Shown here piece by piece: positions 3,066 to 55,446 of a stretch of DNA of 64,000 nt. This DNA comes from Octopus vulgaris (lineage: Eukaryota). Where the stretch lies: contig OX597818.1 of assembly GCA_951406725.2 (NCBI GenBank), forward strand, positions 145,080,001-145,144,000, in the 5' to 3' direction. The first letter of the stretch is position 1. Each line of letters starts with the position of its first letter. The position numbers were made by a program, and so were the translations under genes. Under the pieces are notes generated by a model that saw nothing but the letters and a program-made list of their open reading frames with translations, did no database searches and had not been told where the DNA came from.

Positions 3066-3313
3066 GAACCGCATTATCGTAACCGACGGAGCGCTCCTTT
3101 CCATTCCACACACACACACACACACACACACACACACACACACACACACACACACACACACACACATATATATATACGAGAAGAAAATGGATATAATAAG
3201 AATGGGAACCTTGTGGTTTTCGCTGGTATGTCTTTAATTAAATAGGTAACAAAGAAGGAAGAAGCAGAGATGAGAGTAGCATTTACGATCGTTTCGATTT
3301 ACTGGTTTAAGTA

Positions 3314-4593
3314 CGAGGGGCGTTCAATAAGTAATGCCCCTGACCCACTTCCCATAGCAGTAGAGCAACGACACTTGGCACAGTTATTAGTCTTTTCCTA
3401 CATACGAACTACCCAGAGTTATGCATTTCTCCCATCGTTTGATACCGCTCTGGAGACCGTTTTTGTAGAAGACGCCAGCTTGGTCCTCCAACCACGACGG
3501 GACTTCAGAAATCAAGGCTGCATCATCTGGGAAACGCTTTCCTTTCAAAAGCAACTTCATGGCTGGGAAGAGGTGAAAATCAGAGGGTGCAGGTCAGGAG
3601 ATGGGGGATGAGTTCATAGCCGCACGCCTGTGCTTCTGATCTGGCGACACGCGAGTTGTGGATCGGAGCGTTGTCCTGCAGGAGGATGATGCCTTTGCTG
3701 ATCTTGCCCCGCCTCTTGATTTTGATAGCTTCTCTTAATTTCCTCAAAAGTGAAGCATAATAGGCTCCTGTAATTGTGGTACCCTTTGCCAGGAAATCTG
3801 TCATCACTACTCCGTCCTGGTCCCAGAAGACTGTGAGCATAACATTGTCAGCGGAGGGCTGCACCCTTACCTTCTTTGGAGGAGGTGAGTCACGGTGCTT
3901 TCACTGCATTGACTGGGCTTTGATCTATGGATCATAGTGATGGACCCAGGTTTTATCCTGTGTAATAAGTCTTTTGAAAAATTTGACTCATCTTCTTGGC
4001 ACATCTCCAAATTCATCCTCGAGCACTCAACGCGTTCTTGCTTCTGGAAAGGTGTGAGCAACCTGGAAATCCATCTGGCAGACACCTTTTGGATATGCAA
4101 ATGGTCATGAATGATAGTTTCCACAGACCCCGTACTAATCTTGACCTCATGGGCTATTTAGCGAATAGTTATGCGTTGACCTTCTAAAATGGCAGCCTCA
4201 ACTTGACGGACAGACGTCTCATCAACGGCAGAAGGGGGCGACCAGATCTGGGAGCTGTTTCCACAGAGTTCCGACTATGTTTGAATTCACAATGCCAGCG
4301 TTTTACAAGATCATATGATGGGGCATCATCACCATAAGTTACTTTCATTTCATCAAAAGTCTCCCGTGGTGTGCGTCCTTTCAAATACAAAAACCAGATC
4401 ACTGCTCGACACTCAACAGGCTCCATTTCACACTTGACTCAGTTCAATCACCTGTAAATCAGAAACCACAATTAGTTCAGAGCTGTAATTCGCCACTTAA
4501 TCTATAGAGATATAAATATTTGTACATGCAAAATTTCAGCTAGATCAAACAACTGCAAGTGGGTCAGGGGCATTACTTATTGAACGCCCCTCG
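3314..4593 (-). mobile_element. Full-length mariner transposon (about 1.28 kb) with disrupted transposase
   Basis: TIR CGAGGGGCGTTCAATAAGTAATGCCCCTGACCCACTT at both ends and TA target duplication. Transposase fragments MEPVECRAVI..., WISRLL, MLTVFWD, LLQDNA, DLHPSDF. Frameshifts and stops present. Confidence 0.96.
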
Positions 4594-4792
4594 TAACACT
4601 CTTCAGAATGCGAATATAGATAGATGCATCGGTTAGGATGCGAAAATAATTGATACATATGTGATGGTAATGTAAACAAAGGTATTAAGCCTTACATTAC
4701 ACTTTTGTTCTTTACATTCAATTTTTGTTTACATTACCATCACATATGTATCAATTATTTTCGCATCCTAACCGATGCATCGATCAATATTC

Positions 4793-4843
4793 GCATTCTG
4801 AACAGATTTACTTAAACCAGTAAACTGAAACGATCGCAAATGC
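4793..4843 (+). ncRNA. Minimal type I hammerhead ribozyme motif (this arm mutated; two-arm consensus is canonical)
   Basis: GCATT CTGAACA GATTTACT taaacc AGTAAACT GAAA CGATCG CA AATGC. The opposite arm supplies CTGAAGA, AGTAAATC and the GUA cleavage triplet. Confidence 0.75.
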
Positions 4844-4929
4844 TACCCCCATCTCTGATTCTTCCTTCGTTGTTATCTAATTAACTCTCCCTATATATAT
4901 ATATATATATATATATATATATATATACT

Positions 4930-53500: not shown

Positions 53501-53694
53501 AATTTCAATTAGACGATTTAAAATATTAATCACACCAAACTCCTCTGCTGTGATTTGTTTGAATAGAAAATGTTCCCTGGAGTTTGATTGAATGTCTTAA
53601 CTCTCTCCATGATATATAATTCAATTTATGTTGGTTTCTATATTCATACTATACATGCTATCGCATAATTTTCATGCTTTTTCAATGGCAAACT

Positions 53695-53845
53695 ATTCTG
53701 AGTTTAAATGTCACTGGGGTCATCTTTACCTTTCACCCTTCAAAAGTCGATAAAATGAAATACCAGTTGAGTACTGAAGTAAATGGTCTTGACTAACTCC
53801 TCATCCTTCAAAATTTCTGACCTGTGCCTATATCAGAAACCATTG
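53695..53845 (+). mobile_element. Diverged Nin-type SINE remnant
   Basis: CTTTACCTTTCACCCTTCAAAAGTCGATAAAATGAAATACCAGTT. Confidence 0.55.
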
Positions 53846-54873
53846 TTATTACTCAAAAGATATCACATACTGATTTAAATTATATATGCATACACACATA
53901 CATATATCTATGTTCAACACAGTGTGTATGAGAGAATCATGATAAATTTAAGTCAATTGCAGTTTTGAAATATTCGCTGGCAAACGCCAAATAGGGATAA
54001 ATATACCGTGTCATTTTTCTTCTCATGTGCCAAAAAAAAAAAAAAAAAAGAGAAAACAACAGGTTGTCCTGATACATTATGCGCTATGATAACATTCATC
54101 AAGGATCAAGTATTCTTTCATCACGTCTTTTCAATAGCGATTACTATTTAAATCAAGCACAAACAGGAATTATATGTGGTGTGTAGATTAATTAGCATAT
54201 TGTGTGTTTATTGGTGGCTTAATTATATCACAAATATTTATGCATATTCCACTTCGTGAACGGAAAGATAAGGAAGTTCACATTTATGAATTAGCATCTG
54301 TTTAAAGTTTCGTAACGAAGATTTTATAACTTACTTTATCTTAGGTTTCTGTTACGCAGAGTGTTACACATAGCTATTCATTACTTAATCAAATTTCGAT
54401 TAAATACGCGGCATGCAAATTAGTCTACTCATTAGAGCGAGGTTCTGGCTGGCTTGTGTTTCATTAAATTTAACTTGTTTCATATATACATACATACCCA
54501 CCCCCATATATATATATATATATATATATATATATATATATATATATATATATATATATATAATTTATGTATGTATATACTTACATACATATATGTATGT
54601 ACGTATACATATATGAATATAAATATATATATACGTGCATATCTATATATCTATTTATTCATATATATATATATATATATATATATATATATATATATAT
54701 TATATTTGTGTGTGTGTGTATGATGGGGAGGGTCAGTAAGAAACACGTGTGTTTCTTATTTGCAAAACGATCCCACAAAATACAAAGAACATCTGCTTCA
54801 ATACATGAAATTATACCCTACAAAACAAGTACAAAAATCCTCTCTCTCTTTCTCTGCGTGTGTATATATATAT

Positions 54874-55446
54874 TAATAGTTATCGCCAAGCTAACATGGC
54901 AGTCCAGAAAAATAGGACGAATGCTGCCGTTGATTAGCTCCAAGAGGCCATCACCTCTTGTTAGCTATGTGACACACGAACCTGTGTCCATTATAACCTT
55001 TGAACAGGGGAGGTCAGCCGCTTCCCCTTGCCGATCTGGCATCTACAGACTAGTTTCTATGTATTTGCCCCTTATCAATGTAGAACAGCCGAACCAGGCA
55101 GGTGTCGCTACTGACCATCTGTTTGAAGGATTATTTACCTAAATTGTTTGAAAACCAGTGGATGTATTCCACTGAATTTAGGTAAATAATCCTTCGAACA
55201 GACGGTCAGTAGCGACACCTGCCTGGTTCGGCTGTTCTACATTGATAAGGGGCAAATACACAGAAACTAGTCTGTAGATGCCAGATCGGCAAGGGGAAGC
55301 GGCTGACCTCCCCTGTTCAAAGGTTATAATGGACACAGGTTCGTGTGTCACATAGCTAGCTAGAGGCGATGGCCTCTTGGAGCTAATCAACGGCAGCATT
55401 CGTCCTATTTTTCTGGACTGCCATGTTAGCTTGGCGATGACTATTA
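54874..55446. repeat. Fold-back element: 272-bp arms (54874-55145 and 55175-55446), 29-bp spacer, between (TA)n tracts
   Basis: About 7 mismatches between arms. The ORF track shows the same peptide on both strands. Confidence 0.96.
55236..55278 (+). ncRNA. Type I hammerhead-like motif with U3/A8 core variant (mirror copy on - strand at about 55042-55084)
   Basis: TCTACA TTGATAA GGGG caaata CACA GAAA CTAG TC TGTAGA: 6-bp stem I, palindromic ACTAGT, GUC site. Stem II is poorly paired. Confidence 0.65.

Follow-up and report, generated by a model that had tools for sequence, protein, structure and literature searches.

The 64,000-nucleotide stretch of Octopus vulgaris DNA analysed here (assembly GCA_951406725.2, contig OX597818.1, positions 145,080,001 to 145,144,000; "the window", from whose first letter positions are counted) contains seven inverted repeats, several of which carry hammerhead ribozyme motifs in mirror image. 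These fold-backs are very probably head-to-head pairs of 5'-truncated ends of Penelope-like elements (PLEs), likely formed by cutting of both strands of a (TA)n tract and by the start of complementary DNA (cDNA) at two sites. The arms are pseudo-long-terminal-repeat (pLTR) sequence with two fixed 3' ends, variable 5' ends and a constant head-to-head orientation. The fold-backs represent the known PLE class and its footprint, not a new class of element.

A dust-masked self-BLAST of the window recovered all seven repeats at about the positions given by an earlier reading of the DNA made without database searches (the sequence-only reading). They fall into six multicopy families: F3 (the repeat at 3243), F2 (42786), F4 (45424 and 50304), F6 (45783), F5 (46338) and F1 (54874). 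About five unrelated sequences had been counted before; the repeats at 45424 and 50304 are one family, 78% alike. The structure at 3243-4879, described as one long inverted repeat, is a real fold-back of only about 400 nt, split by a 1.28-kb mariner-type transposon (Table 1), and as the mariner copy sits inside the fold-back, the fold-back is the older of the two. In the "spacers" of the fold-backs the longer arm simply continues, unpaired, in the 5' direction, and most elements run past the ends first assigned to them via a one-sided tail, which is clean in five of the seven. Simple sequence repeats adjoin at least one side of all seven elements, as had been claimed, and the window as a whole is AT-rich and rich in such repeats. 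AATAAA, reported earlier after several elements, is present downstream in three families (42786, 50304 and 46338), within AT-rich DNA where such a match may be chance.

The genome search covered 2.8 Gb in 227 contigs. For each query, the sample analysed comprised the 30-40 hits with the highest scores and was not drawn at random; BLAST defined the ends of joins. The first look gave 2858 candidates for F1, 1308 for F2, 253 for F3, 433 for F4, 1041 for F5 and 341 for F6, which are not copy numbers. Copies of F2 and young copies of F4 were 96-99% similar, and those of F5 and F6 about 80%. An inverted partner always lay on the 5' (upstream) side; no downstream and no tail-to-tail partner was present in 180 locus rows. 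Such partners were found at 11 of 28 non-window loci in F1, 23 of 29 in F4 and 0 of 28 in F6, in 5 of 29 F3 rows and in 7 of 29 cases in F5; single arms are the majority in F1, F3, F5 and F6. The young families offer insertion events by the hundred that arose independently, alike in their fixed 3' ends and different in their joins.

The 3' ends lie at two fixed points, one per arm: relative to the predicted cut these are +66 and +220 in F2, and in F4 they lie a 66-nt tail apart. Exactly one tail was present in every head-to-head pair, namely in 34/34 pairs of F4 (60 loci) and 18/18 pairs of F2 (49 loci), 52/52 in total; the query included the tail for 24 of the F4 pairs and lacked it for 28 pairs. 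In a column-wise check, the same base occupied the first tail position in 3 of 41 F4 pairs, which may be short ends that start like the tail. The term "stereotyped", applied to these insertion products by the sequence-only reading, is thus right for the 3' ends and wrong for the joins, whose position varies from locus to locus. Clean F2 joins without inserted bases had an overlap of at least 2 nt (2-5 nt) in 8 of 13 cases vs 16% expected; two joins with inserted bases and six unclean ones were set aside. The two arms of F4 loci agreed at 83 of 87 non-CpG polymorphic positions, and minor alleles were common to both arms in 20 of 24 cases vs 9% across loci. Among tailed F4 arms retrieved with a tail-only query, 25 of 30 cross the predicted cleavage site, 14 end 42-47 nt upstream of it and none ends within 2 nt of it, so that the F4 ends, judged by sequence, give no sign of template cleavage. 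The 5' ends of F2 form a softer cluster at about -153 to -177. The flanks, which were looked at for target-site duplication, are (TA)n or other simple repeats.

As a separate observation, the pile-up of F4 5' ends 41-60 nt upstream of the predicted cut (about 50345-50356 in the window; also locus L205) coincides with a pyrimidine run ending in AG before helix I. It resembles a splice acceptor, and no spliced copy was seen; in Drosophila Penelope, an intron ends at helix I (PMC4209133).

Four families lead upstream into PLE coding sequence for reverse transcriptase (RT) and/or a GIY-YIG-type endonuclease, of Hydra type in F2, F3 and F4 and Neptune-like in F5. The link between arms and PLE open reading frames (ORFs), for which a search had been proposed, was thereby found for these four, and the option of "PLE insertion products" is supported by this colinearity and by the PLE end structure of all families. 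The F2 element exceeds 3 kb, with an intact ORF of about 900 aa between pLTRs. Three loci (L335, L336, L337) have uninterrupted ORFs of 899-908 aa, and in L335, L339 and L340 the arm flanks the ORF on both sides as a pLTR with hammerhead. In full-length copies the F2 tail is the 5' untranslated region immediately before the start codon, and the copies at these five loci are 83-93% identical to the window arm. At another F2 locus (L091), which also has an inverted copy, a truncated RT-endonuclease ORF stops about 560 nt short of the arm. The upstream coding sequences of F3, F4 and F5 are truncated or broken. In F4, both extended loci (L230 and L231) show colinearity across about 2.4 kb; the thumb and endonuclease regions that they encode have 53% identity with a database protein of 713 aa. 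All four extended F3 loci are colinear, three of them with endonuclease matches and a CxCX5C linker. Upstream of the arm, four of eight extended F5 loci encode a Neptune-like endonuclease, and these four are colinear with one another; the Neptune motifs (a CX2-5CxxC linker and CCHH in the C-terminal endonuclease) are recognisable in the broken copies L236, L238 and L240. By their sequence motifs, the parents of F2 to F4 fit the Hydra-clade list of PMC8557442, with deviations: in F2, DKT is present, CCHH is absent, RWK reads RWL and CxCX5C is missing, while CxCX5C is present in F3 and has one Cys changed in an F4 copy. ORFs beside F5 (L150), F3 (L090) and F6 (L295) were rejected as parents, being neighbouring insertions or in the wrong orientation.

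F1 and F6 are likely non-coding, non-autonomous PLE passengers. F1 is an ORF-less unit of about 360 nt; a junction query retrieved 30 loci at which units follow one another head to tail, for the most part as partial dimers. F6 is an ORF-less unit of about 620 nt, for which a partial tandem was seen elsewhere and which has no canonical hammerhead.

We suggest that the PLE endonuclease likely cuts both strands of the (TA)n tract and that the reverse transcriptase would start one cDNA per target strand, using two fixed internal positions on the same uncleaved RNA. Both cDNAs would stop early, and their inner ends would then be connected, in many cases at 2-5 nt of microhomology; for the shortest stubs, initiation would have taken place at the pLTR copy close to the transcript's front, the RNA being uncut by the hammerhead. 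On this view the hammerhead is mirrored only because it lies in the copied end, which would make the hairpin a side product rather than the unit that moves. Published work on PLEs describes both-strand nicking with extension, two internal initiation sites that bound the tail, and uncleaved RNA as the main substrate (PMC11167929), as well as an inverted truncated copy, a tail at one end and a (TA)n bias of insertions (PMC8557442), and inverted pLTRs with a tail on one of them and head-to-head joins (PMC3846280). A stricter version, somewhat less likely than not, is that the stubs record, on the scale of the genome, obligatory twin priming, in which a dimeric PLE protein would nick both (TA)n strands and copy one uncleaved RNA twice, from two fixed sites, the 5' pile-up marking the transcript start. 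A strict one-tail rule for PLEs was not found stated in the accessible literature on PLE twin priming and head-to-head insertions or on octopus Penelope hammerheads, most subscription papers lying outside the search.

The second arm might instead have been made, from the same PLE origin, by self-priming (snap-back) of a single cDNA or of an antisense template, a route put forward for Adineta PLEs. Short perfect palindromes form the centre of many F4 joins, where the two arms end at one and the same position; self-priming from such palindromes was argued for in PMC3846280, and the variants common to both arms could also stem from a single molecule. We nevertheless regard this route as rather unlikely: many joins are strongly asymmetric (in F2, for example, -98/-222 and -1041/+92), and the outer ends lie at two different fixed sites in all of the one-tail pairs counted above, matching the initiation sites found in vitro (PMC11167929).

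The sequence-only reading also proposed protein-free ribozyme-hairpin mini-elements; that the fold-backs are such units, transcribed and re-inserted whole and acting through double-stranded RNA (dsRNA), is improbable. The high share of fold-backs among non-window F4 loci speaks for it, as do the predicted stability of the hairpins if transcribed and a few F4 rows with a common join centre (three at -44/-44 or -45/-45, four at about -76/-76). These centres coincide with short template palindromes and could recur independently. Such elements are not supported as a replicating unit: joins differ widely, no fixed spacer or hairpin unit recurs, single arms dominate in the older families and several arms lack a complete hammerhead. 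Ordinary miniature inverted-repeat transposable elements (MITEs), or assembly artefacts at palindromes, are hardly credible despite the inverted ends beside TA, because the arms are ends of RT-encoding elements linked to PLE ORFs, differ by 1-19%, end unequally with a tail on one side and, in one case, hold a later mariner insertion, where MITEs would have equal terminal inverted repeats and a fixed internal sequence across copies. As regards artefacts, contigs of other runs cross the joins at 45424 (run X1, possibly from the source sample), 45783 (X3, with a different organism label) and 46338 (X1 and X2), and no listed contig bridges the joins of F1 or F2.

Several points weigh against paired PLE ends made by two-site priming. 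Older copies of F3, F5 and F6 have arms that resemble the best other copies at least as much as they resemble one another. Among 60 loci of F1 and 66 locus rows of F6 no parent ORF turned up, so that the link of these two families to a PLE enzyme is drawn from end structure. Pfam recognises no Hydra-type ORF and a PDB sequence search gave nothing significant; the Hydra-type assignment is based on motifs and homologues. In F1, tail-tail and short-short combinations occur in 9 of 23 rows when internal tandem junctions are counted, and it is these junctions that make its end pattern less clean. One arm is further shortened in the window copies of F3 and of the older F4 (F4a). The variants shared between F4 arms could also be explained by gene conversion or by a single-molecule fold-back, and the best-hit sampling and BLAST-defined joins also count on this side.

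The hammerheads were scored with a relaxed type I descriptor against 100 dinucleotide shuffles per arm; a first, strict descriptor missed degenerate genomic copies. The relaxed descriptor was tuned after the motifs had been seen, and its shuffle null is therefore optimistic. Nine of the 14 arms outscored every one of their 100 shuffles, and in each case the motif pointed outward, as the sequence-only reading had stated. Both arms of F5 at 46338, with a weak stem I, stayed within the control (17/100 and 18/100 shuffles reached their score). The descriptor found no hammerhead in either arm at 45783 or in the left arm at 50304, which is cut within the motif and lacks the first core box. Across the window, 12 sites scored at least 8, six of them in the listed arms, vs 0-4 in each of six block-shuffled windows. 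Among the 150 listed of 283 Rfam matches there was no hammerhead, nearly all being microRNA (miRNA) models on simple repeats or hairpins. An apparently solo minimal hammerhead of another family (score 10, one core substitution) lies outside the listed repeats at 41290-41338 on the minus strand.

Family alignments gave the type I layout in F1 to F5, well supported in F1 to F4, where the conserved core with its 3-8 pair and the three helices are present at family level. The same minimal layout had been claimed for all repeats except that at 45783; it holds for F1-F4 as families, is doubtful in the F5 arms and is lacking in the left arm at 50304. F1 has a U3-A8 core and helix I variants that preserve pairing. 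F2 has a long helix II of about 55 nt, a 3-bp helix I and an 8-nt self-complementary helix III; stem III at 42786 is this 8-mer with A as the next base (GUA triplet), rather than ACATGT and a subsequent G. Covariation of the stems had been proposed as a check, and helices II and III of F2 do covary: over 10 sequences 92.8% of cells were paired, with three pairs changed on both sides, against 32-50% in slid controls, a figure that leans in favour of the structure because the structure was derived from those same 10 sequences. F3 is canonical at family level, and F4 has C at core position 4 and A at 10.1. In F5, helices II and III are good and helix I is weak, so its hammerhead is doubtful. The type I pattern is not found in F6, where both half-cores occur in permuted order. 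At 45993-46256 these half-cores are conserved across copies and flanked by complementary segments; they may represent a ribozyme fold that has decayed or is unusual. Attempts by eye to parse F6 as a type II or a permuted hammerhead were rejected for want of consistent helices. The claim of a ribozyme on both strands holds, for putative ribozymes, at 42786 and 54874 and in degenerate form at 45424 and 46338; it fails at 50304 because the core is missing, at 3243 because the mariner splits the motif, and at 45783.

The octopus elements share with endonuclease-bearing (EN+) PLEs a single RT and GIY-YIG ORF and pLTRs with hammerhead (both in F2), and an inverted 5'-truncated copy with a tail at one end. 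The PLE literature already describes each of these traits: truncated copies in inverse orientation, a tail on one side, (TA)n as target and hammerheads on opposite strands. Insertions with an inverted 5'-truncated pLTR resemble those described here in the head-to-head truncated copy, one-end tail, partial tandems, (TA)n targets and palindromes or overlaps at the join; they differ in that published tails are 30-40 nt long vs about 35-155 nt here, that the octopus copies are mostly ORF-less stubs and that the one-tail pattern is without exception in the two young families tested (PMC3846280, PMC8557442). The motifs resemble the minimal type I hammerheads of metazoan PLE pLTRs, which have low in vitro activity, in their short helix I, palindromic helix III needing a dimer and U3-A8 variant (PMC4209133). 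Supplements aside, they differ from the hammerheads of that paper in the F4 bases at positions 4 and 10.1, the F2 helices I and II and the weak helix I of F5. A further shared trait is the pairing of hammerheads on opposite strands at a distance of 100-700 bp, which Cervera and de la Pena (2014, PMC4209133) already describe for Schistosoma.

The Hydra clade (PMC8557442, section 11) is matched by DKT in F2, CxCX5C in F3, the absence of CCHH, the hammerhead and insertion at (TA)n, and F2 differs from it in ORF length, N/S-rich insertions, the missing CxCX5C, RWL for RWK and an element length above 3 kb. Two N/S/G-rich insertions stand between the thumb and endonuclease of the F2 protein, which is without the Hydra Cys linker (L091:3400-4270; L335-L337); they are reminiscent of the asparagine-rich inserts reported for Adineta PLEs (PMC3846280). 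F1 resembles animal non-LTR retrozymes in its non-coding unit, single type I hammerhead and head-to-tail repeats (PMC7229834; bioRxiv 10.64898/2026.07.22.740005), and differs in occurring as monomers and partial dimers with PLE-type inverted ends. The longer F6 unit, lacking a canonical hammerhead, falls outside the retrozyme definition of a 170-400-nt unit with one hammerhead each. In an octopus, 31 recently active Penelope-like families have been reported in a paper from whose main text the word ribozyme is absent (PMC13282606).

Read-through RNA of the fold-backs is predicted to form long hairpins; the dsRNA, ADAR and siRNA roles suggested by the sequence-only reading are speculative. The contigs of runs X11 and X22, which are RNA by guess only, contained family-level F1 pieces and nothing specific to the window loci.

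Table 1. Positions of probable PLE ends and of the inserted transposon in the window
Feature	Position	Strand
F3 inverted arm, outer part (3' half of hammerhead and 3' end)	3171..3313	-
Mariner-type DNA transposon with 39-bp terminal inverted repeats, a later insertion at TA in helix II of the left F3 hammerhead	3312..4596	
F3 inverted arm, inner part (first core box)	4593..4712	-
F3 direct arm, the 3' end of a Hydra-type PLE; two substitutions in the core of its hammerhead (4793-4843)	4724..4884	+
F4 solo tail-only stub between (TA)n runs	33868..33924	-
F2 inverted arm; tail of ~150 nt, 42635-42785; hammerhead about 42849-42928	42635..42949	-
F2 direct arm including "spacer"; hammerhead 43091-43170; short end; 4-nt overlap at join	42946..43233	+
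F4 older copy; fold-back 45424-45558; core at 45519; right-arm tail to 45656; left arm shortened at outer end	45424..45656	+
F6 head-to-head arms; left tail 45735-45782; permuted half-cores without canonical fold	45735..46256	
F5 left arm 46333-46574 (tail side) and right arm 46581-47156; degenerate hammerhead; 3' end of Neptune-like PLE	46333..47156	
F4 young copy, inverted arm cut inside hammerhead, without first core box; short end	50298..50352	-
F4 young copy, direct arm (Hydra-type PLE 3' end) with 66-nt tail; C at position 4 of the core at 50367	50350..50504	+
F1 inverted arm; hammerhead with U3-A8 core 55072-55078; short end	54870..55145	-
F1 direct arm; U3-A8 core at 55242; tail of ~50 nt; ~360-nt ORF-less, tandem-capable (retrozyme-like) unit	55162..55495	+

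Other features of the window include a second mariner-type copy at 34300-35590 (Pfam Transposase_1, E 1e-18), 93% identical to the copy inside F3. A further fold-back at 48968-49232, between (TAA)n and (TTA)n runs, is built from a very high-copy repeat that also occurs at 11935-12305, 33674-33830, 40712-40836 and 44613-44822; the window-wide descriptor scan scored no hammerhead in it. The 10 kb downstream of the window (L342) hold two more inverted-repeat structures (L342:3117-3374 and 7782-8996), and the 10 kb upstream hold none within a 2.5-kb span. No obvious host gene was found among the window ORFs of at least 110 aa; an open frame of 141 codons at 52650-53075 has protein-like composition and no Pfam match, and may be an exon or a remnant of a transposon.

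The "large, poorly annotated class" foreseen by the sequence-only reading is large, and it belongs to the known PLE class. Hairpins of this kind are to be annotated as PLE ends, not as MITEs or miRNA precursors. Their mechanistic interest lies in the strict one-tail rule, the variants common to both arms and the clustered 5' ends; the formation of inverted PLE ends has been named as a task still to solve (PMC8557442), and the regular ends seen here hint at how PLE enzymes insert. If twin priming is obligatory, every two-armed insertion would have exactly one tail. The presence of Hydra-type elements with intact ORFs in this genome would make twin priming testable in vitro, the F2 relatives being usable for such assays. 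Stubs in transcribed introns, if many, would add dsRNA in an animal lineage.

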